Of a stretch of DNA of 64,000 nt, positions 38,583 through 51,217 are shown piece after piece. The translations under genes were made by a program, and so were the position numbers. Numbering within the stretch: position 1 is the stretch's first letter; each line of letters begins with the position of its first letter. This DNA is from Patescibacteria group bacterium. Its GTDB lineage: Bacteria > Patescibacteriota > Minisyncoccia > Phycocordibacterales > UBA9973. Below the pieces are notes generated by a model that had not been told where the DNA came from, made no database searches, and saw only the letters and a list, made by a program, of their open reading frames with translations. The stretch covers positions 10,255 through 74,254 of the forward strand of contig JAZKIP010000004.1 of the NCBI GenBank assembly GCA_040384805.1, given 5' to 3'.

Positions 38583-40265
38583 CTATGAGAGAAACACATC
38601 CTCTTCTTTTGTGGGTAAAAATTGTGATTCCTCATTTTTTTGCACTTTATAACGTATTGCATATTCAACAAGAGCCTGTTTTGTAAGCATATATGATGCA
38701 AGGGCATGCGGATCCTTCAGGTCCTCGTTCTGTATCTGGATTCCCTGGGTTTTCTTCAATTCCTCTAGAAATCTCTTTTTTGCAGAGTAGATCAGACTTT
38801 TGTTAGAATCGGGGGAATTTTCTTCTTTCATTTTTTTCTCCAGTTCTTTTAAGGTTTCCGACAGCTGTGAGAAAAAATCCGGATTTGACAGCATCCAGAA
38901 TTTCCTATGGCTTTCCATGTAGTTTATGAAATAGTCTTCAAATGTTTCATTGTCTGCATTTATCATTTCTTCGGTTATCGGCAGCAGCGCGTAGCTGTCA
39001 CTGTTGATATCCTCATTCTTATACAGGCCCAATTCGACGAATGCTTCTGCAAGCGCGCCGTATAGAGTGTCTCCATCTTTGAAAGGTTGATAATAGAAGC
39101 TTTTTTGCCGCAAGAGATTGTTATCTACCAGTGTTTCAGGAGCTGCCATTCCGGCTACGATAATTTTGGATTCTTCCAATGCCCTCTTGTAAAGATCTGC
39201 TTCTTGCGGAGTCGTATTGGCGATAGCTCTTTGCAAATTCCCCAGTTCGCTTTCCAGTATCTCCGCGTCCGTCTGCGAATTTTTTTCTTGGTTGGAACGC
39301 GCAGGTTTTTTCTGAATAGGATCTTCCATGGTTGTCGACTCTGGAGTTTCCTCCCCTGTCATTGATTCTATGATTTGTTCTCCAAGCTCCCTGTGTGATT
39401 TCGCAAAGTCTCCGTTATTCAGGGTAATGTGCTTTGCCTTCTTGAGAGTTTCAACCGCGCTTTCATATTTGTCATTGCCTTCTTTTTCTTTCGCGAACGA
39501 TTCCAGTCTTTCAAGGATTGATCCCCGATTTTCATCATCAAGAAGAACAACAATAACATTGCTTTTCTTCTCTATGGCCTTTGCTATCTCCTGCCCGCCG
39601 ACCACGTCGAATTTATCAAGTACGTCATGTGTCAAAAGAACAACCGTCTGCCCTTTTTCAGGAATGCCGGCGTTGATCGACTCTTTCCATCGGTTTCCCA
39701 ATGGCAGGCCTTTGGCAAGTTCAGCACCTCCTGAAGACGAGAATTCTTCCTCGTCGATAGTTATATTCGTTTCCTGATTATCAAACCATACGAGCATGCC
39801 TATGGAGCGAAGAGCAAGATGCAATTTTCGAGCCATCTCTTCGTTACGGCGCGAATATGAGACCATTACTTCGCGAGACGGGAGTTTTGCAAGCAAGGGA
39901 TGCATGTCCGCTATTCCTTCCGCTATCGCTTCCACTTCCTCAAGACTATCTTTTCTCTTCTTATATGTAATCGTCTTTTCCGTTCCTTTCTGGCTGGCTT
40001 CAGTGTCGAGTGTCTTTTGCAGGGATTCGACTCCTGCTTTTAGGTTCTGAAGCGACGCCCTCCTTTCAGACACATTAAGAGGCTCCATACTAACCTCTGA
40101 CTGCTCGGCCTTATTATAAACAGAACCACCGTCCTTATTATTTAAATTGAATTTTCTTCTTTCTATCATATATGTAATTATATCACGGTGATTTTTAAAA
40201 TATAGTCCGCCTGGATCTTGGGAATTGAAACCCCTAAGAGTGAAAAAAGATTTCAAACTTGCCAT
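38583..40265 (-). CDS. 560-aa hypothetical protein with a central TIR-like domain
   Basis: REVMVSYSRRNEEMARKLHLALRSIGMLVWFDNQ ... GNRWKESINAGIPEKGQTVVLLTHDVLD follows the TIR layout (betaA xxSYSxxD, alphaA A..L..L, betaB VWxD, W...I). TIR-like part at about 39515-39863. Flanks are Lys/Glu-rich with no motif. Confidence 0.5.
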   Translation of the reverse strand: MASLKSFFTLRGFNSQDPGGLYFKNHRDIITYMIERRKFNLNNKDGGSVYNKAEQSEVSMEPLNVSERRASLQNLKAGVESLQKTLDTEASQKGTEKTITYKKRKDSLEEVEAIAEGIADMHPLLAKLPSREVMVSYSRRNEEMARKLHLALRSIGMLVWFDNQETNITIDEEEFSSSGGAELAKGLPLGNRWKESINAGIPEKGQTVVLLTHDVLDKFDVVGGQEIAKAIEKKSNVIVVLLDDENRGSILERLESFAKEKEGNDKYESAVETLKKAKHITLNNGDFAKSHRELGEQIIESMTGEETPESTTMEDPIQKKPARSNQEKNSQTDAEILESELGNLQRAIANTTPQEADLYKRALEESKIIVAGMAAPETLVDNNLLRQKSFYYQPFKDGDTLYGALAEAFVELGLYKNEDINSDSYALLPITEEMINADNETFEDYFINYMESHRKFWMLSNPDFFSQLSETLKELEKKMKEENSPDSNKSLIYSAKKRFLEELKKTQGIQIQNEDLKDPHALASYMLTKQALVEYAIRYKVQKNEESQFLPTKEEDVFLS

Positions 40266-42416: not shown

Positions 42417-44219
42417 ATGAGCCTTTATAGAAAACTCGCCGATACTCCCGTTCCATATCTGCTGCGACGTGTCTGGAAATACTCCCATGACCGCAGGCGG
42501 CTCTTCATCGCCCATATCGCCTTTACTGTCATCGCCAATGTCTTTACTATTCTTGAGCCGCTGGCTCTGGCCAAGGCTTTTAATGTGACTCAGCTTTCAT
42601 CGGGGGATCCGGATGTTCTTAAACATATCATCATGTATCTTCTTCTCTATCTTGCCCTCGGATTCGCTTTTCGGATCTTTTTCCATATTTCGGGAATCAT
42701 TGAGCGCAAGAATTCTTTCTTCGTTCAGATGAATTTCCGACAGGATCTGATCGATAAGACTCTCGCTCTTCCGGCATCATGGCATCGCGACCACCATTCG
42801 GCCGATACGATTCACAAGATCAATCGCGCAAGCGAAAGCCTCGAATCATTCTCCGGCAATATCTATATTTTGATAGAAAATGTCATGCGTGTCGCGGGCG
42901 CCATCATTGTTCTTGCCTACTTCGACTGGGTTGCAAGCGCGGCGGCTTTCATCATCTGCATCTGTGCCGCACTAATCATAAAATTCTTCGACGGACGCCT
43001 CAGAAAAGAGTACAGGATCGGACATGATCAGGAAAACAGCCTTGCCTCGACGATTCAGGATTCGATCTCCAATATCGTTACCGTCATCTCCTTGAATCTG
43101 GAGCGTTTGGTCGGATCAAAGATAAAGACTCAGTCTATTGATATGTATCCCTCCCATGTCAGGCAAGTCTATCTTGATGCGAACAAATGGTCTCTGGCGA
43201 AGCTCATGATAAAGACTCTGACCACCGCGACCGTTATTGTGTATGCCATAACATCCTACAAAGCAAACGGCATTGTTCTTGCCGGAACCCTCTTTATCCT
43301 CTACAGATATATGAGCGATATGGCGACGATATTCAACGATTCGGCAAGCAGATACAGCAAGCTCGTTCGGGAAGACGTGGGCGTCAGGGGAGTCGAAGAA
43401 ATAGAAAATGCTTACCAGAGCCTCGGTCCGGTAATAAACGCGCGCCTTTCTTCCGGCTGGAAAGAAGTGCAGATCAGCCGACTGTCATTCTCCTATTCTC
43501 CGCGCGGTAGCGACCAGACGGCACACGCTTTTTCTCTTTCGGATATTTCTCTGTCGATCCGCCGGGGGAAGAAAATAGCGATCATCGGCGAAAGTGGAAT
43601 CGGCAAAAGTACTCTCCTCCTTATCCTCCGAGGCCTGTATCCGGCCGAGGCGGTCGTGAAAGAAGATGGAAAGAATCTGCCGAACGGCTTATCTCATCTG
43701 CGGCCTCATATCACTTTCATACCTCAGGAACCTGAGATATTCGATACGACTCTTGAGAATAATATAACCATGGGACTTTCGTATCCGAAGGAAAAGATTC
43801 AAAGAGTGCTCCGTATGGCTCATCTTGAGCCTGTGATAGACACACTTCCCAAAGGACTTGCGACGAAGCTCATGGAGAAAGGGGTACGCTTGAGCGGCGG
43901 GCAGAAACAGCGCGTCGCTCTTGCCAGAGGATTCATTGCGTCAGACGAAAGCGATATCATCCTTCTTGACGAGCCGACAAGCAGCATGGATGTCCTGACG
44001 GAAAAGAAAATATATGATAATTTGTTTGTCATGATGCCATCGAAAACCGTTATTTCCACTATTCACCGCCTGCATCTTGCCCCTTTATTCGATGAATTTT
44101 ATTTTTTCACTGCAGACGGAATTTTCTTTACCGATTCATTTGACACGCTTCTCAAGAATAAGGCTTTTGCCGAATTATGGAAATCGTACCATCTTAGTGA
44201 CAAAAGAAACGCCATATAA
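42417..44219 (+). CDS. ABC exporter, fused permease + ATP-binding protein
   Basis: Six N-terminal TM helices. Walker A GESGIGKST. Signature LSGGQKQRVALARG. Walker B IILLDEPTSSMD. Confidence 0.85.
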   Translation: MSLYRKLADTPVPYLLRRVWKYSHDRRRLFIAHIAFTVIANVFTILEPLALAKAFNVTQLSSGDPDVLKHIIMYLLLYLALGFAFRIFFHISGIIERKNSFFVQMNFRQDLIDKTLALPASWHRDHHSADTIHKINRASESLESFSGNIYILIENVMRVAGAIIVLAYFDWVASAAAFIICICAALIIKFFDGRLRKEYRIGHDQENSLASTIQDSISNIVTVISLNLERLVGSKIKTQSIDMYPSHVRQVYLDANKWSLAKLMIKTLTTATVIVYAITSYKANGIVLAGTLFILYRYMSDMATIFNDSASRYSKLVREDVGVRGVEEIENAYQSLGPVINARLSSGWKEVQISRLSFSYSPRGSDQTAHAFSLSDISLSIRRGKKIAIIGESGIGKSTLLLILRGLYPAEAVVKEDGKNLPNGLSHLRPHITFIPQEPEIFDTTLENNITMGLSYPKEKIQRVLRMAHLEPVIDTLPKGLATKLMEKGVRLSGGQKQRVALARGFIASDESDIILLDEPTSSMDVLTEKKIYDNLFVMMPSKTVISTIHRLHLAPLFDEFYFFTADGIFFTDSFDTLLKNKAFAELWKSYHLSDKRNAI

Positions 44220-44251
44220 AAGTCCATACTCCTGAGCTATATCGCTACAGG

Positions 44252-44276
44252 GGAAATGCAAAAGCATTTCCTTTTC
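44252..44276 (+). terminator. Terminator GGAAATGC-AAAA-GCATTTCC + TTTT
   Basis: Hairpin with T-run 30 bp after the ABC gene stop. Confidence 0.6.
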
Positions 44277-44457
44277 GGGACTTGCGTGGAAAGAGAGTTT
44301 GACAAAAGAAGATAAATATGCTAATATATAAAGGAAAAATACCTTGAAATATTTATGTTTTTAGGTGGTATGTAAAGTGAGTTTCTCCGTATTGCTCGGA
44401 CGGGCGACAGGGAGAAACTCATTTATCTTATCTCTAAAAATTTAAAACAAAATCACA

Positions 44458-45087
44458 ATGGAAACATTAACCAGAGGACTTGACAATCTGTGGACTGCAG
44501 ACGGTCTGACAGATCCCGAAAAGAACCTTTTGCAGAAATTCATTGCCGAAGTGGCCCGCAAAGCAAAAGGCTTCATATCAGAACTCTTCGGCTTTGACAA
44601 AACTCGTACGGCGAAAAGCCGGCCCGAAGAATTTATCATCAGCAAGGAATCGGTTGAAGAGGATTTCTTCCAGCCGATCCGTGAACGGGAAGCAAGCGCC
44701 GGAAATATCGTTCCGTGGCTTGATGAAGATATCTGGAAATTCTGGAAAGGAAAGAAAGTTCCTGGCTTCCTCGTGGACATTATATTTTCGATCTATCGCT
44801 TTTTAAAGAACCTTACTCACAGACAGATTCTGGAGGAAGGAGAAAAGCAGGAAATTAAGAAAATATATTCCTATGCCCAGGCCAAGGAAATAATCCGCAC
44901 GGCAATATGGGCCGGCGACGTTGACCAGAAGAACACAGGCGTATTCGCTTATTTTAAGGTAGATGCAGGTGGACCTTTGTACCGCTTCAGCGCCTTCCGT
45001 CGCGGCGGCGGCCAGCTCCGTGTATTCGTGGATGGGGTGGGTCTGGACGGCGTGTGGTATGTCGGCCTTGGTGTGTGCTTCGGCTGA
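44458..45087 (+). CDS. DGR target protein (209 aa) with C-terminal variable region
   Basis: The C-terminal 35 codons (YRFSAFRRGGGQLRVFVDGVGLDGVWYVGLGVCFG) are the VR counterpart of the TR at 45408-45510. Confidence 0.8.
   Translation: METLTRGLDNLWTADGLTDPEKNLLQKFIAEVARKAKGFISELFGFDKTRTAKSRPEEFIISKESVEEDFFQPIREREASAGNIVPWLDEDIWKFWKGKKVPGFLVDIIFSIYRFLKNLTHRQILEEGEKQEIKKIYSYAQAKEIIRTAIWAGDVDQKNTGVFAYFKVDAGGPLYRFSAFRRGGGQLRVFVDGVGLDGVWYVGLGVCFG
44981..45083 (+). repeat. DGR variable repeat (VR)
   Basis: 103 bp aligning with the TR. About 20 mismatches, all but one at positions where the TR has adenine. Confidence 0.85.
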
Positions 45088-45407
45088 TTATTTTTCCCTT
45101 AACAAAAAAAGGACTCTTGAATACTTTGTATCTTGGGTCCTTTTGTTTTTTATTTTTAATATTGTAAAATATCCATGTGATGCAGCATTTCGCTTTGGCT
45201 ACGGCTCGGGCGACTGCTCATAAGATAATACTCTCGGCAGAATCCGGGTGGATACGTCTTCCCGGAGAGATCGTTTATTTTCTTCATATAAAAAGATTTT
45301 TGTAGGTGGAATCAATTCTCGGGCTTCGACGCCCGGCATGCAATTCAGCACGTTCTCAGAGAGCGCATTTAGAACGGCAGTGATCAAGATGATTGTTTTC
45401 ACAAACG

Positions 45408-45510
45408 ACCGCTTCAACGCCTTCCGTAACGACGACGGCCAGCTCAATGTCAACGTGAATAAGGTGGATCTGGACAACGAGTGGAATGTCGGCAATGGTG
45501 TGTGCTTCGG
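45408..45510 (+). repeat. DGR template repeat (TR), non-coding, rich in AAC/AAT triplets
   Basis: ACCGCTTCAACGCCTTCCGTAACGACGACGGCCAGCTCAATGTCAACGTGAATAAGGTGGATCTGGACAACGAGTGGAATGTCGGCAATGGTGTGTGCTTCGG. Same orientation as VR and RT. Confidence 0.85.
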
Positions 45511-45533
45511 AAACACGATCTTTCTCCCGCATA

Positions 45534-45923
45534 TTATCTCGCGGGAGTTTTCTTTTCCAATCCCTTCTTCCAGCCACCCAACATCCGGCCGATCTCGTCG
45601 AGCGATGTCGAGAGATCGGCGTATTTTTGATTCGAAACGCACTTGTTTTCCCAAGCAATCTGAAGGAAAAATTTGACTCCGTCGAGCTTCGATATAGCAA
45701 TCGTCAGGCGGGGAGCCTTCTGCTCGGGAGACAAATAGAGAGACACGAATATATTCTCAAGGAGTTCAAGAAAATATCCTTCAACTTTGCCGCCTAAAGT
45801 ATAGCGGTATGTTTTCGGAATATCTGCCGTAATGGTAAACCACAGCGTATAGGCCTTTTTGGCTTTGATGAGCACCGATGCCTGTGTGACAGGCTTTGCA
45901 CTATAAGAAGTGAGTGTCGTCAT
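45534..45923 (-). CDS. avd: Accessory variability determinant (Avd)-like four-helix-bundle protein, encoded on the opposite strand between TR and RT
   Basis: ...KAKKAYTLWFTITADIPKTYRYTLGGKVEGYFLELLENIFVSLYL ... SLDEIGRMLGGWKKGL resembles the Avd / TIGR02436 four-helix-bundle family (compare EVGRILGSWI of Bordetella phage Avd). Confidence 0.65.
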   Translation of the reverse strand: MTTLTSYSAKPVTQASVLIKAKKAYTLWFTITADIPKTYRYTLGGKVEGYFLELLENIFVSLYLSPEQKAPRLTIAISKLDGVKFFLQIAWENKCVSNQKYADLSTSLDEIGRMLGGWKKGLEKKTPAR

Positions 45924-45976
45924 TCGTTGTGTTGTTTACTTGTATAATAGTTTATTTATCTGTAATATATTATAAC

Positions 45977-46962
45977 ATGGAAATATTTAAAAAGCAATAC
46001 CTCAAGATTGTTACCGTCGAAAATCTTATTGAGGCATGGAACGAGTTTCTTCGCGGAAAGGGAAATCGCAGCGATGTCGCGGCTTTTCAGGCCCGTTTGT
46101 CGGACAATATCTTTGATTTGTGGCGCGAGCTTGCCGACAGGACATATATTCACAGCGGATACGAGGCGTTCAATGTCTCCGATCCGAAGCCGCGGATTAT
46201 TCACAAAGCTCTTGTTCGCGATCGTCTCCTTCATCATCTCCTCTATCGGGAACTCTATGCCTATTTCGACCGGAAATTTATCTTTGATTCGTATTCGTGC
46301 CGCATGAGCAAGGGAACCCATCGGGCAATAGACCGTTTCCGAGAATATGCCGGGAAGGTATCGAAGAATAATACGAAAACATGCTGGATCTTGAAGTGCG
46401 ATATCAGAAAATTCTTCGCAAGCATCGATCATGCTATCTTGAAGCGCATTCTTGCCGAGCATATCGCCGACCCCGATTTCCTCTCTCTTTTCGGGGTTGT
46501 GATCGACAGCTTCGAAACGAAAGGAGTGCTCGGTGTCGGGCTTCCTCTCGGCAATCTGACGAGTCAGCTTCTCGTCAATGTCTATATGAATGAATTCGAC
46601 CAGTTCGTCAAAAGAAAACTGAAAGTGAAATATATTGTATCCGCTATGCGGATGACTTTGTCTTTTTAAGCGACGATAAGACGTATCTCGAATCGCTCAT
46701 ACCGGAAATACGGGCATTCTTGGAAGAAGAACTGAAGCTCTCCATCCATGAGAAAAAGCTTTTCCTTCGGACTCTTGCCTCGGGTATGGATTTCCTCGGC
46801 TGGGTGCACTTTCCTCATCATCGGAAACTGAGAACTGCGACAAAGAAAAGAATGCTGCGCAGGCTGGCGCAGTCTCCCGAGCCTCAGGCGGTCAATTCCT
46901 ATCGGGGGATGCTTCGTCACGGAAATACATACAAGATCCAAAAGCAAGCGGGATTAACATAG
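45977..46962 (+). CDS. DGR reverse transcriptase, reading frame broken by a 1-nt frameshift near 46638-46643
   Basis: N-terminus LIEAWNEFLRGKGNRSDVAAFQARL ... KPRIIHKALVRDRLLHH and motifs GLPLGNLTSQLLVNVYMNEFD. The catalytic RYADDFVFL appears only after shifting frame at GTATCC(C)GCTATGCGGATGAC. The downstream frame continues to 46962. Confidence 0.8.
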
Positions 46963-47044
46963 TATAACCAGTGGAAATTTAATTTAACTAATCTTAATAT
47001 AACCTTTAGAAACCTTTTAGGATTCCAGATGTACAATTTGCTCC

Positions 47045-50000
47045 ATGGAGCAAATTGAATACTTGCGGAGCAGGATCTTTGCAAAGATACGCTCTTTTTC
47101 ATATCGCTTTGGTTTTATCCTCCTCTTTTTATTATTGTTTCCTTGGGCCAATCTCCATGCGGCAGACCGCAGCGCTCCCTTTCTTTTTGGAGAAACTCTT
47201 GATCCCGGAATGGAATCGGAGCCTTGCGGGCCGATGGATGAGAACTGCTTTCCGGGCCATCTTGGAACTCAAGACGAGAATAATCATCTGATCAATAATC
47301 CGACAGGTCTTAATTTCGTAGGTCCGGGAGTAACTGCTACGCAAGATAGCAACGGGTGGATCATCGTGACAGTTCCCGGAGGGCTGACATCTCTCAACGG
47401 GATCTCGGTCGGCAGCCAGACGATAAGCGCAGGGTCGTCGGGAACGGATTTCAACATCTCATCATCCGGATCGGGCCATATATTCAATATCCCGAGTGCC
47501 TCGTCACTCGGCCGCGGTCTTTTAACCCCGGCTGACTGGGCTATTTTCAATGGCAAACAGGATTCTCTCGGATTCACTCCTCTTGATCCGGCGAACAATC
47601 TTGCCGATCTTGCATCAACAGCTCTCGCAAGAACGAACCTCGGCCTCGGAAGTGCTGCGACAGTAAGCCTGACAACGCTCCTTCAATCATCAAATAATCT
47701 CTCTGATATCGCATCGACCGGCACGGCCCGCGCCAATCTGGGTCTTGGCACTATGGCGACGGAGAATTCAAGCGCGTTTCTTCGCTCGGCTAATAATCTC
47801 TCCGACCTCGGATCAGCAACAACTGCGCGTACGAATTTAGGATTAGGCACGGCAGCTCTGGCGAATCTCTCATCTCTCCTTCAAGCGTCGAATAACTTAT
47901 CAGACCTTTCCAATATCATAATCACCCGCGCAAATCTTGGATTGGGAACTGCCGCGACGGCGAACTCATCGGCATTTCTTCAAGGATCCAATAATCTTTC
48001 CGATCTCGGTTCATCATCTACCGCGCGCACGAATCTCGGTCTCGGAACTCTTGCCACCCTTTCGACTATCAACAATTCGCACTGGTCGGGAACCCCTCTG
48101 TCGGTTTCAAACGGAGGAACGGGAGCCGGAACTGCAAATGACGCTCTTAATGCATTTCTTCCGGCTCAAGGTCCGCACGCGGGAGACTACCTGACAACAG
48201 ATGGCGCGACTGCGTCATGGGGCGATCTTCCGTCGCCCGCGTGGGGATCGATCGCCGGAACCTTATCGGATCAGAGCGACATGCAGGCGGTCTTTGACGC
48301 GAAGGAGGATGTAATCATTCCCGGCTTAACGAGCCACTATTTCCGAGGCGATAAAACATGGCAGACTCTTAACAAAGCGTCTGTAGGCCTTGGTAATACT
48401 GAAAATACAGCTCTCTCGACATGGGCGGGAAGCGCGAACATAACGGCGCTCGGGACTATCGCATCAGGTACGTGGAACGCGAGCCCGATCGCTGATCTCT
48501 ATGTTTCGAGCGCTTCGTCATGGAATGCCAAGCAAAATGCGCTCGGATTCACCCCTCTTGATGCGGCGAGCAATCTCTCTGATCTTTCCGATGCAAGTGA
48601 TGCCCGTGCAAATCTTGGCCTTGGTACTATCGTGACCGAGGATTCAGACGCATTTCTTCAGGCATCAAACGATCTTTCCGATCTTGTCCACGTCCCAACC
48701 GCTCGGTCTAACTTGGGATTAGGGACGGCTGCTCTTGAAAGCGCGGATTCTTTTCTTCTTGCGGCAGGCAACCTCTCGGATCTTTCATCCCTATCGGACG
48801 CAAGGAACAATCTCGGTTTGGGATTGCTTGCGATTTTAAGTACGGTGAATGATAGCAACTGGTCGGGAACTCCTCTTGCGATCGCAAACGGCGGAACAGG
48901 AGCGGGAACCGCAGAGGATGCACGTAACGCCATCCTCCCGCTGCAAAGTTCCCATGCGGGGGAGTATCTGACGACGGATGGAACCCACGCATCATGGGAT
49001 GAGCCGCCCGCGCCCGCGTGGGGATCGATTGCCGGGACTTTGTCCGATCAAGCGGATCTTCAGGCCTCTCTTGATGAAAAAGAGGATGTGATTGACGCAG
49101 GATCGGCAAGCCAGTATTTCCGCGGGGACAAGACATGGCAGACTCTCAACAAGGCTGCCGTTGGTTTGGGGAATGTGGAAAATACAGCTCTCTCAACATG
49201 GACGGGAAGTACGAATATAACGACGCTCGGTACGGTTACCGGAGGCACATGGCACGGAAGCGCGATCGATGATGCGTATATTGGAAGCGCTGCCGCATGG
49301 AATGCCAAACAAGCTTCTCTCGGATTCACGCCGCTTAATCCTGCGAATAATTTGTCTGAAATTGTTTCAGCACCGACGGCGCGTACGAATTTAGGATTGG
49401 GTACGGCGGCAACTTTAAATACAAATGCTTTTTTGCAACCCGTCAATAATCTCTCTGAACTCTCTTCGCCATCTACTGCCCGCACAAATCTCGGTCTCGG
49501 TAGTGCAGCTACAGTTAATACAAATTCACTTTTCCAAGTTTCTAATAATTTATCTGAAATTGCGGTACCTTCAACTGCTCGTACCAACCTCGGCCTTGGC
49601 ACTGCCGCAACGGCAAATTTGACTTCTCTTCTTCTAGCATCAAACAATCTTTCTGACCTCGGATCAGCAACAACCGCGCGCACGAATCTAGGCCTCGGAT
49701 CTCTCGCCACTCTTTCATCGGTCAATAATTCGAACTGGTCGGGGACAGGGCTCTCGATTGCAAACGGGGGAACAGGGGTAACAACTGCAAATGACGCTCT
49801 TAATGCATTTCTACCTTCGCAGGGAATAAATTCCGGAAAATATCTGACAACCAACGGTACCAATGCATCATGGGCCGATATAGTTCCGGGCGGAGTTACC
49901 TCTGTCGGGCTTTCTCTTCCCTCCGTGTTCTCCGTCTCGGGTTCTCCGGTAACATCAAGCGGAGTATTATCGGCGACGCTTGCAACTCAAAGCGCGAATA

Positions 50001-51217
50001 CTGCATTCTTGGGTCCTGCGACAGGAGGCGCAGCAGCGCCCGGATTCCGCTCTCTTGTGATCGCGGATCTCCCGACAGCAATACCGAATGCCAATCTTGC
50101 CAATTCATCGCTTTCTCTTGCGATCGGCACCTCGGGAACCGATGCCGCATGGTCGGCAGGGTCGGTATCTCTCGGCGGAACGGCGACGCTTAATATCCCG
50201 GATGCCTCGGCAACGAACAGGGGACTTGTCACCACAGGAGTCCAGACGGTCGCGGGAGTCAAGACGTTCTCATCGGCGCCGAAGCTCTCATCGCTCACCG
50301 CAGGATCGGTCCTCTTCGTCGGATCGGACAAATCTATATCCGAGAATAATACGAAGCTCTTTTGGGATAATTCCACCAATCGCTTGGGGATCGGAGTGAA
50401 CAATCCCTCGGGAGTTCTTCATACGAGCGGGGCGGTTTATTTCGCCGGTCTTGCGACTGATAATTCGATCGGTCTTGCGGGAGCCTTATGCCTTGACGCT
50501 TCAAACCAGCTCAAGAAGCTCACGGGCCTCGGGTCATGCATCGTTTCGTCGCGCAAGTACAAGAAGGACATCGAGACCTTGTCATACCCTGATCGCTCGA
50601 ATCTCGACACCGTCATGGCTCTTCATCCGGTTTCCTACACGAGTATCTTCGACGAGAGCAAACGCATCGGATTCGTCGCCGAGGAGGTTCTTTCTATTGA
50701 TCCGCGCCTCATCGCGTTTGAGCCGGGAAGCACGACCGATCCGCGCGGCGTCCGCTATGAGGAGACAACGGCCCTTCTTGCGGCGGCACTCCAGGAACTT
50801 AATCTCGAGGTCAAAACGCTTTCCGAGCCGTGGACGGCTCAGGAAAGCGGAAGCTTCGCGGGGAAATTTACAACGCGCCTAAGCGAATGGCTGTCCGATG
50901 CGGGGAACGGCATACGGACAATTGCGGCCGATACGTTTCGCGCTCGCGAAGCGGTCGTCGAGCGCATCTGCGTCGGCACCGAGGAGAACAAGACATGCAT
51001 CACGAAAGACGATCTTGATCGCCTCCTTGCCAATCAGGCAGCTCCGCAGATGACACCCTTTTCAAATCCATCACCCGAATCGGACGAAGGTACCATGCCC
51101 GAAGAGCCATCACAAAATGCGCCTCCGGAAGAGGATATTCTTCCCGGGGAGAGCGAAGATCTTACCAATAACGCCCTTCCTGAAGCGGCCGATGCTATTC
51201 CCGTATCTGAAAGCTAG
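47045..51217 (+). CDS. 1390-aa secreted fibre protein built from phage-tail-fibre-like repeats with a C-terminal peptidase-S74-type intramolecular chaperone domain
   Basis: Signal peptide FGFILLFLLLFPWANLHA. More than 20 copies of NNLSDL(x)S(x)TARTNLGLGTAA and three copies of IANGGTGAGTA(x)DA(x)NA ... W(x)GSIAGTLSDQ modules (internal duplication of about 800 bp at 48.1-48.9 kb versus 48.9-49.7 kb). C-terminal SSRKYKKDIETL ... LHPVSYTS ... GFVAEEVLSIDPRLIAF at about 50540-50830 matches the tail-spike/endosialidase chaperone domain. Confidence 0.7.
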   Translation: MEQIEYLRSRIFAKIRSFSYRFGFILLFLLLFPWANLHAADRSAPFLFGETLDPGMESEPCGPMDENCFPGHLGTQDENNHLINNPTGLNFVGPGVTATQDSNGWIIVTVPGGLTSLNGISVGSQTISAGSSGTDFNISSSGSGHIFNIPSASSLGRGLLTPADWAIFNGKQDSLGFTPLDPANNLADLASTALARTNLGLGSAATVSLTTLLQSSNNLSDIASTGTARANLGLGTMATENSSAFLRSANNLSDLGSATTARTNLGLGTAALANLSSLLQASNNLSDLSNIIITRANLGLGTAATANSSAFLQGSNNLSDLGSSSTARTNLGLGTLATLSTINNSHWSGTPLSVSNGGTGAGTANDALNAFLPAQGPHAGDYLTTDGATASWGDLPSPAWGSIAGTLSDQSDMQAVFDAKEDVIIPGLTSHYFRGDKTWQTLNKASVGLGNTENTALSTWAGSANITALGTIASGTWNASPIADLYVSSASSWNAKQNALGFTPLDAASNLSDLSDASDARANLGLGTIVTEDSDAFLQASNDLSDLVHVPTARSNLGLGTAALESADSFLLAAGNLSDLSSLSDARNNLGLGLLAILSTVNDSNWSGTPLAIANGGTGAGTAEDARNAILPLQSSHAGEYLTTDGTHASWDEPPAPAWGSIAGTLSDQADLQASLDEKEDVIDAGSASQYFRGDKTWQTLNKAAVGLGNVENTALSTWTGSTNITTLGTVTGGTWHGSAIDDAYIGSAAAWNAKQASLGFTPLNPANNLSEIVSAPTARTNLGLGTAATLNTNAFLQPVNNLSELSSPSTARTNLGLGSAATVNTNSLFQVSNNLSEIAVPSTARTNLGLGTAATANLTSLLLASNNLSDLGSATTARTNLGLGSLATLSSVNNSNWSGTGLSIANGGTGVTTANDALNAFLPSQGINSGKYLTTNGTNASWADIVPGGVTSVGLSLPSVFSVSGSPVTSSGVLSATLATQSANTAFLGPATGGAAAPGFRSLVIADLPTAIPNANLANSSLSLAIGTSGTDAAWSAGSVSLGGTATLNIPDASATNRGLVTTGVQTVAGVKTFSSAPKLSSLTAGSVLFVGSDKSISENNTKLFWDNSTNRLGIGVNNPSGVLHTSGAVYFAGLATDNSIGLAGALCLDASNQLKKLTGLGSCIVSSRKYKKDIETLSYPDRSNLDTVMALHPVSYTSIFDESKRIGFVAEEVLSIDPRLIAFEPGSTTDPRGVRYEETTALLAAALQELNLEVKTLSEPWTAQESGSFAGKFTTRLSEWLSDAGNGIRTIAADTFRAREAVVERICVGTEENKTCITKDDLDRLLANQAAPQMTPFSNPSPESDEGTMPEEPSQNAPPEEDILPGESEDLTNNALPEAADAIPVSES

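Follow-up and report, generated by a model that had tools for sequence, protein, structure and literature searches.

The analysis of a 64,000-nt stretch of contig JAZKIP010000004.1 (assembly GCA_040384805.1, positions 10,255-74,254 of the forward strand; hereafter the window) from a Patescibacteria group bacterium identified a diversity-generating retroelement (DGR). It comprises a target gene ending in a variable repeat (VR), a template repeat (TR), an antisense gene for the accessory variability determinant (avd) and a gene for a reverse transcriptase (RT). The locus is very probably a chromosomal DGR of the type known from Patescibacteria (Candidate Phyla Radiation, CPR), with architecture B3 and with an RT split by a net gain of 2 nt, in which case the VR would be the frozen product of earlier homing. 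The identification was established by the adenine-specific mismatch pattern of the two repeats, the identity of the RT and Avd, a layout conserved among relatives, and a covarying RNA structure. A preliminary description, made from the sequence alone, had already recognised a DGR from the adenine-specific mismatches, an Avd and a DGR-type RT, all of which were confirmed. It had also called the element complete, and this is doubtful, as the RT is interrupted directly before its YADD box. The repeats and coding regions of the cassette are as follows.

44458-45087, + strand: target gene, an open reading frame (ORF) of 209 aa, with the VR coding for the last 35 residues (175-209) at the C-terminus
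44981-45083, + strand: VR, at the 3' end of the target gene, in gapless alignment with the TR
45408-45510, + strand: TR, 103 nt with 25 adenines, in gapless alignment with the VR
45534-45923, - strand: avd, 129 aa, Pfam bAvd, pointing towards the TR and away from the RT
45977-46669, + strand: RT N-terminal frame, 230 aa, with motifs 1-4 including GLPLGNLTSQLLVNVY; its stop codon (46667-46669) lies after the frame break
46631-46638, + strand: frame-break site TATATTGT (8 nt), located from the RT protein alignment; 6 nt in relatives
46636-46962, + strand: C-terminal part of the RT in the second frame, with CIRYADDF (YADD at 46645-46656) and the thumb

Repeats, Avd and the interrupted reverse transcriptase

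The VR and TR align over 103 nt without gaps, with a start-to-start spacing of 427 nt and an intervening gap of 324 nt, and a repeat finder independently returned the pair as the top direct repeat (81% identity). Mismatches are present at 20 of the 103 positions. Nineteen of these are at TR adenines, and the hypergeometric probability of at least 19 of the 20 falling on the 25 adenine positions is 1.3e-14. The repeat coordinates, the approximate number of mismatches and the adenine specificity with one C/A site in the preliminary description all held on realignment, and the bias to TR adenines, the loss of which would have argued against a DGR, stands. The sole non-adenine mismatch (TR-C/VR-A at 45024) is a synonymous third-position change from GTC to GTA; occasional non-adenine substitutions have been reported for CPR DGRs (Wu et al. 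2018, PMC5758913). Read in the frame of the VR, the TR has nine AAC or AAT codons, triplets that had been noted earlier, and each of its 25 adenines occupies the first or second position of a codon. The TR adenines permit approximately 1.1e15 DNA variants and approximately 5e14 peptide variants.

The last 14 nt of the VR (45070-45083, GGTGTGTGCTTCGG) are free of adenine, rich in G+C and identical in the TR, and the flanks diverge. By its position, this segment is a candidate for the initiation of mutagenic homing (IMH) sequence. The homology may be 3 nt longer, extending into the VR stop codon (TR AAA against VR CTG), and would then include further adenine substitutions. No further VR-like copy was found on either strand of the 64-kb window when the TR was used as the query with adenine as a wildcard, and a scan of JGI metagenomes with the TR pattern, in which adenines were replaced by N, matched no VR variants.

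The frame separating the TR from the RT was identified as Avd by Pfam bAvd (50.3 bits against a gathering cut-off of 40; E = 3.7e-13). The NCBIfam model DivGenRetAVD matched with 59.3 bits, under its equivalog cut-off of 80, and the protein is 32-76% identical to the Avds of related loci. The earlier proposal of an Avd-like ORF on the strand opposite to its neighbours was thus borne out. The cassette order (TR +, avd -, RT +) is TR-(avd)-RT, or architecture B3, in which avd lies on the reverse strand and to which 90% of the DGRs of CPR bacteria are reported to belong (Wu et al. 2018, PMC5758913). No second copy of the RT, Avd or target was present in the window.

RT relatives were collected by a scan of one genome per species, which found more than 570; the best 80 (57-66% identity) are almost all from metagenome-assembled genomes (MAGs) of Patescibacteria. 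An Avd homologue was present in 76 of the 80, the other four loci having less than approximately 120 nt upstream of the RT. It was opposite in strand to the RT in all 76 and directly upstream of the RT in 73. Given this and the B3 norm in CPR, the antisense Avd, previously described as not the usual layout, is unusual only relative to the phage prototype. Simple self-comparison recovered, at 57 of the 80 loci, a VR/TR pair in which 80% or more of the mismatches are on adenine. Among these, the order VR, TR, avd stop is near-universal, with a median VR-to-TR gap of 338 nt and a median distance of approximately 10 nt from the TR end to the avd stop. RT relatives on viral contigs were few (nine in IMG/VR, versus the more than 570 in genomes). 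The locus resembles the CPR DGRs described by Wu et al. (2018, PMC5758913) in the way target-VR, TR, antisense avd and RT are ordered and oriented, and in its host group. It also resembles them in having a small target without a Pfam domain and a VR outside the C-type lectin (CLec) and immunoglobulin (Ig) classes by sequence, like their 'UVR' classes. As a separate observation, one TR serves two VRs in paralogous small targets at two of the related loci (L050, 787-902 and 3213-3326; L078, 5042-5155 and 7706-7819).

The RT carries LPLGNLTSQLL in motif 4, which includes the (I/L)GxxxSQ signature of DGR RTs. When the frame was repaired, the protein matched RVT_1 with 80.7 bits. Its best match in the PDB was 8ub7_A (a 328-aa 'Reverse transcriptase'; E = 1.7e-36), which we take to be the Bordetella phage bRT; group II intron RTs scored approximately 1e-15 (GsI-IIC RT, E = 1.6e-15). 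The assignment of a DGR-type RT to 45977-46962 was therefore upheld and, by these scores and the LGNLTSQ motif, the protein does not lie outside the DGR RTs.

The two RT frames are separated by a net gain of 2 nt (TAT-AT-TGT, with the extra AT at approximately 46634-46635, in a TATAT context) between motif 4 and the YADD box, two codons ahead of the latter. All 80 relatives have two codons (6 nt) at this position, usually Tyr-Tyr and once Tyr-Cys, within K-V-K-Y-Y-I-R-Y-A-D-D. A frame change before YADD had been noted previously, and a correction of the frame is needed as stated; the comparison with the 80 homologues shows, however, that the lesion is a net insertion of 2 nt and not the loss of 1 nt. 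In contrast to the window, the RT is a single continuous tblastn match in 80 of 80 relatives; the interruption is private to this genome, and a frameshift is not a feature of the RT family. Both frames are free of other stop codons and are 57-66% identical to relatives over their whole length. The 230-aa product would be inactive, because the break lies between motif 4 and the catalytic YADD. The broken RT bears on the present activity of the element and not on the kind of element it is.

A Logan contig from run SRR26324625 was 100% identical to window positions 43855-48136, contained the same 230-aa RT ORF, and passed through the VR unbroken. The lesion is thus seen again in another assembly, although the two may derive from the same reads. 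Exact-protein look-ups with the target, Avd and the N-terminal RT ORF found only one contig, which was 100% identical to the window. With the rest of the cassette intact and a single, silent non-adenine change between the repeats, any inactivation would have happened recently, provided that the 2 nt are not an error. Recent inactivation was judged the more probable of the two, with a considerable share left to mis-sequencing.

Conserved RNA structures around the template repeat

The following elements were identified between the target gene and avd.

45107-45158, + strand: terminator-like hairpin and T-run after the target stop codon, 24 nt downstream of the VR (minimum free energy (MFE) -15.1 kcal/mol, z = -2.6)
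45165-45170, + strand: -10-like box TAAAAT preceded by TG, which aligns with a conserved TATAAT/TATACT block after the T-run in relatives
45178-45407, + strand: conserved structured RNA domain of approximately 230 nt (5' limit approximate), which adjoins the TR on its 5' side and includes two small hairpins
45190-45213, + strand: P1, with stems of 6 bp and 3 bp separated by a mismatch and capped by a UACG tetraloop
45243-45266, + strand: P2, with stems of 6 bp and 3 bp separated by a mismatch and capped by a UACG tetraloop
~45289-45296, + strand: A-rich block within the RNA domain
45306-45317 with 45391-45402, + strand: 12-bp long-range helix ending 5 nt before the TR
45320-45335, + strand: P3, within the RNA domain
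~45348-49 with 45377-78, + strand: P4, within the RNA domain
45508-45558, + strand: TR 3' flank, with a CGGAAAC motif, a hairpin (CTCCCGC at 45524-45530 and GCGGGAG at 45541-45547) and a U-tract (45548-45557)

The 324-nt gap between the target and the TR is conserved in length across loci, and its sequence is conserved in blocks. RNAalifold analysis of 55 loci gave 42 base pairs in the domain upstream of the TR, with compensatory changes in 37. The cells of the alignment were paired in 92.9% of cases, compared to 42-48% when the partners were slid by 1-3 columns, and the covariation score was 0.807, a value reached by none of 500 shuffles, compared to at most 0.218. A covariance model of the 3' half of the domain matched the window at 45287-45408 (71.9 bits, E = 5.6e-12), and returned 76 matches in 930 kb, from 75 of 91 sources. 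All were on the RT strand, with none elsewhere, and they included loci outside the seed. At the related loci, the domain was noted approximately 110-250 nt upstream of the TR. The window holds one slightly divergent copy of this family-wide RNA. The near-invariant G-U pairs place the RNA on the strand of the TR. A 142-aa ORF spanning the TR (45248-45676) was considered as a gene and was ruled out by the RNA-type covariation with G-U pairs.

The cassette had no match above the gathering threshold in Rfam 15, including RT-1 to RT-19, and the region 45060-45660 gave only chance-level matches at E values up to 10. The upstream domain was not found in the literature consulted, and an earlier description in Paul et al. 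2017 (Nat Microbiol) is possible. The domain was also present in four of the nine IMG/VR relatives (L084, L085, L086 and L089; RT identity 45-61%), and the cassette type is thus not strictly confined to cellular chromosomes. At one related locus (L064, 3721-3833 and 5356-5465), the RNA domain occurs in two copies, which suggests tandem or nested cassettes.

Between the VR and the T-run, the motif CTTNG (CTTTG, CTTGG or CTTAG) is repeated two to five times, often with 8-nt spacing (45098-45146 in the window). Across loci, its frequency in the 120 nt after the VR was 3.4, versus 0.51 per 120 nt in the remainder of the loci, an enrichment of approximately 6.6-fold. Some of the motifs form arms of the hairpin that follows the target; the repeats may be a target-site recognition element, or may simply be terminator arms. 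The hairpin at 45107-45158 is possibly the counterpart of the post-IMH hairpin of other DGRs. The -10-like box that follows, at 45165-45170, is the probable promoter of the TR RNA.

The hairpin in the TR 3' flank was predicted with an MFE of -17.3 kcal/mol (z = -4.4). The succession of CG(A/C)AAC, UUUCUCC, stem, loop, complementary stem and GGAGUUUU(C/G)UUUU was found at 42 of 50 loci, and the upper stems differ among loci yet stay complementary above a CUCC...GGAG base. The avd stop codon (45534-45536) is located in the loop. Because this hairpin and its U-tract coincide with the final codons and stop codon of the antisense avd, the same DNA encodes an RNA element and the tail of a protein. 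The hairpin would be a terminator, an Avd-binding stem-loop, or both. When the TR 3' flank was examined with RNAduplex for long-range pairing with the 5' domain, the partners were inconsistent, and a k-mer complementarity map showed a weak signal between the A-block and U-rich sequence in only 16 of 41 loci; such pairing is not claimed.

In the DGR of Bordetella phage BPP-1 (mtd-VR, avd, TR, Sp, brt), the RNA for cDNA synthesis consists of 20 nt upstream of the TR, the TR, and the 140-nt Sp between the TR and brt. Sp is wrapped around the RT and overlies Avd, and its A56 is the adenosine used for priming (10.1101/2023.10.23.563531). The window locus is similar to BPP-1 in its adenine-specific TR-to-VR transfer, its homologous RT and Avd partner, the position of the VR at the 3' end of the target, the adenine-free G+C-rich end of the homology, and the hairpin downstream of the VR. 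It differs in that avd, which is co-oriented and upstream of the TR in BPP-1, is here antisense and lies between the TR and RT. In addition, only approximately 45 nt (motif, hairpin and U-tract) follow the TR before the antisense avd, and the large structured RNA is upstream. The targets also differ, that of BPP-1 being a tail fibre and that of the window a 209-aa protein without a signal peptide or phage context.

Structured RNAs beside RT genes have been described as the motifs RT-1 to RT-19, of which RT-10 is the spacer RNA between the TR and brt of BPP-1 (Weinberg et al. 2017, PMC5737381). The domain reported here likewise adjoins an RT gene; unlike RT-10 and the other motifs of this series, it lies 5' of the TR and combines two UACG-capped stem-loops with a long-range helix. 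Avd-binding stem-loops of approximately 9 bp, with flipped-out bases and a UNCG or GNRA tetraloop, were predicted in 207 of 278 Avd-containing DGRs, CPR included, in a survey that covered 40 nt upstream and 100 nt downstream of the TR (Handa et al. 2024, 10.1101/2023.10.23.563531). P1 and P2 are similar in form (6 + 3 bp, one mismatch, UACG tetraloop), but two of them are present together, and they lie 140-220 nt upstream of the TR.

Proposed mechanism and alternative explanations

Analogy with the Bordetella phage DGR is the basis on which the ends of the transcript, its contacts with protein, the site of priming and homing itself are inferred here. An RNA of approximately 380 nt, comprising the leader, the TR and the 3' hairpin, would be transcribed from the -10-like promoter at approximately 45165. 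A complex of the RT and Avd would bind this RNA and copy the TR into cDNA, with random bases inserted opposite the 25 template adenines. The cDNA would then replace the VR, and up to 17 codons, within the last three predicted beta-strands of the 209-aa target, could be recoded. From the split frame as sequenced, no active enzyme would be possible, and the VR would remain as it was left by earlier homing.

On the reading that we find best supported, the 5' domain would be a scaffold for binding of the RT and Avd; P1 and P2 resemble the described Avd-binding stem-loops and could bind Avd themselves. The 3' hairpin would terminate the RNA and may also bind protein. The RNA of Patescibacteria B3 DGRs might then be permuted relative to that of Bordetella, with a large protein-binding scaffold 5' of the TR, composed of the two UACG-capped stem-loops, the A-rich block and the 12-bp long-range helix, and with a short conserved motif and a terminator hairpin that shares sequence with the end of the antisense avd on the 3' side; we put this forward tentatively, as a proposal with a little less than an even chance of being correct. 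If the RNA domain and the 3' hairpin do bind the RT or Avd, the priming and bounding of cDNA synthesis in DGRs with an antisense avd become directly testable. The family-wide structured RNA upstream of the TR is the most interesting by-product of the locus. The DGR itself is a further example of a large known class, with the standard layout for its host group, probably disabled, and is of little consequence alone.

The reading of a disabled element depends on the 2 additional nucleotides in the RT. The DGR could instead be fully functional, with the 2 nt arising from an error of sequencing or consensus calling, or from a minority allele that the assembler has fixed, and with the VR still diversifying; we regard this as a serious alternative, although one that probably does not apply. 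Several observations weigh in its favour and against a disabled element. The lesion is single, in frames that are otherwise stop-free and 57-66% identical to relatives over their length; the Avd, TR, RNA domain and hairpins are all intact; the only non-adenine difference between the VR and TR is silent; and the TATAT context makes dinucleotide slippage errors plausible. On the other side, the identical sequence was obtained from run SRR26324625 by an independent assembler, and the unbroken passage of the Logan contig through the VR weakly suggests that there is little VR heterogeneity in the sample. A programmed frame change, in which -1 ribosomal frameshifting or transcriptional slippage sets the level of full-length RT, would account for the clean overlap of the two frames and the required shift of -1, and nothing else speaks for it. 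None of the 80 relatives has a frame change at any position. The sequence AAA-TAT-ATT-G lacks both a homopolymer run and the X-XXY-YYZ form of a slippery heptamer, and the sole hairpin-like feature a short way downstream (46638-46654) matches the consensus weakly, over 7 bp. This explanation was considered highly improbable.

The remaining explanation is that the locus is not a DGR, but a decayed partial gene duplication that lies by chance beside a retron, group II intron or defence RT. The best NCBIfam RT model was indeed that of the group II intron RT/maturase, at 130 bits against a cut-off of 300, with weaker sub-threshold matches to Drt and retron models. [quoted passage not shown] The locus has an Avd gene, the RT is far closer to bRT than to group II intron RTs, and no group II intron or retron RNA was found by Rfam. 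Furthermore, the same cassette occurs at more than 50 loci, each with its own adenine-biased VR/TR pair. We therefore consider this explanation scarcely credible, and retain a CPR-type DGR with a split RT as the preferred reading.

Target family and genomic context

The target protein has an identical counterpart at NCBI, which is annotated as hypothetical and belongs to a Patescibacteria group MAG, on a contig of 177 kb. It had no Pfam or NCBIfam match. A word-indexed homologue search recovered only the protein itself. Exhaustive phmmer analysis identified 72 cluster representatives of 87-253 aa (most approximately 165-250 aa), with identity up to 46%, which share a C-terminal LYRFxAxRxxxGxLxVxVxxV...GxGVCF motif. 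The unconserved positions of the family coincide with the VR, and the family appears to exist as a DGR substrate. Its nearest member (46% identity) is encoded on a wastewater contig in the same cassette, with a homologous TR, an antisense avd and an intact RT, and all 17 mismatches of its VR/TR pair are on adenine.

The AlphaFold2 (AF2) model of the target had a mean pLDDT of 94.8, and a Foldseek search of the model against the PDB gave no significant match; the predicted fold is thus confident, without a clear solved relative. The VR could not be assigned to the CLec or Ig classes by sequence, and the protein has no signal peptide. In a comparison by tblastn and phmmer with the targets of the 80 RT-related loci, tblastn gave no match at 1e-3 and a profile match reached only 8 bits. 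Among DGRs of the CPR type, the locus differs in this respect, as in its interrupted RT ORF, from the 80 nearest RT loci, whose targets do not match its target sub-family of 72 representatives at that threshold. The family may help work on what CPR bacteria diversify.

Two elements were predicted upstream of the target gene, with the hairpin situated between the promoter-like site and the start codon.

44299-44327, + strand: TTGACA-17-TAATAT preceded by TG, a promoter-like site in front of the target gene, from a consensus scan only (10 of 12 matches)
44352-44446, + strand: long, very stable hairpin of 95 nt in the presumed 5' untranslated region of the target (MFE -42.5 kcal/mol, z = -7.8 relative to shuffles)

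Long near-perfect hairpins were also predicted upstream of the targets at approximately 12 related loci, several of which share a GCCAYAGC...AAAG arm.

The neighbouring genes are chromosomal in character. Those upstream encode a GAF histidine kinase, a TIR-domain protein, an APH-family kinase and an ABC transporter, and those downstream a 1390-aa repeat protein with Peptidase_S74, a peptidoglycan-binding protein and a PspC-domain protein. Two of these genes are described further.

38583-40265, - strand: possible gene for defence or signalling, located 4 kb upstream of the DGR, whose 560-aa product has a TIR_2 domain
47045-51217: 1390-aa ORF with many repeats of approximately 30-40 aa (...NLSDL...ARxNLGLGTAA...) and a C-terminal Peptidase_S74 intramolecular chaperone domain

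The 1390-aa ORF, which contains no VR, lies immediately downstream of the DGR and looks like a tail-fibre or surface-fibre protein.

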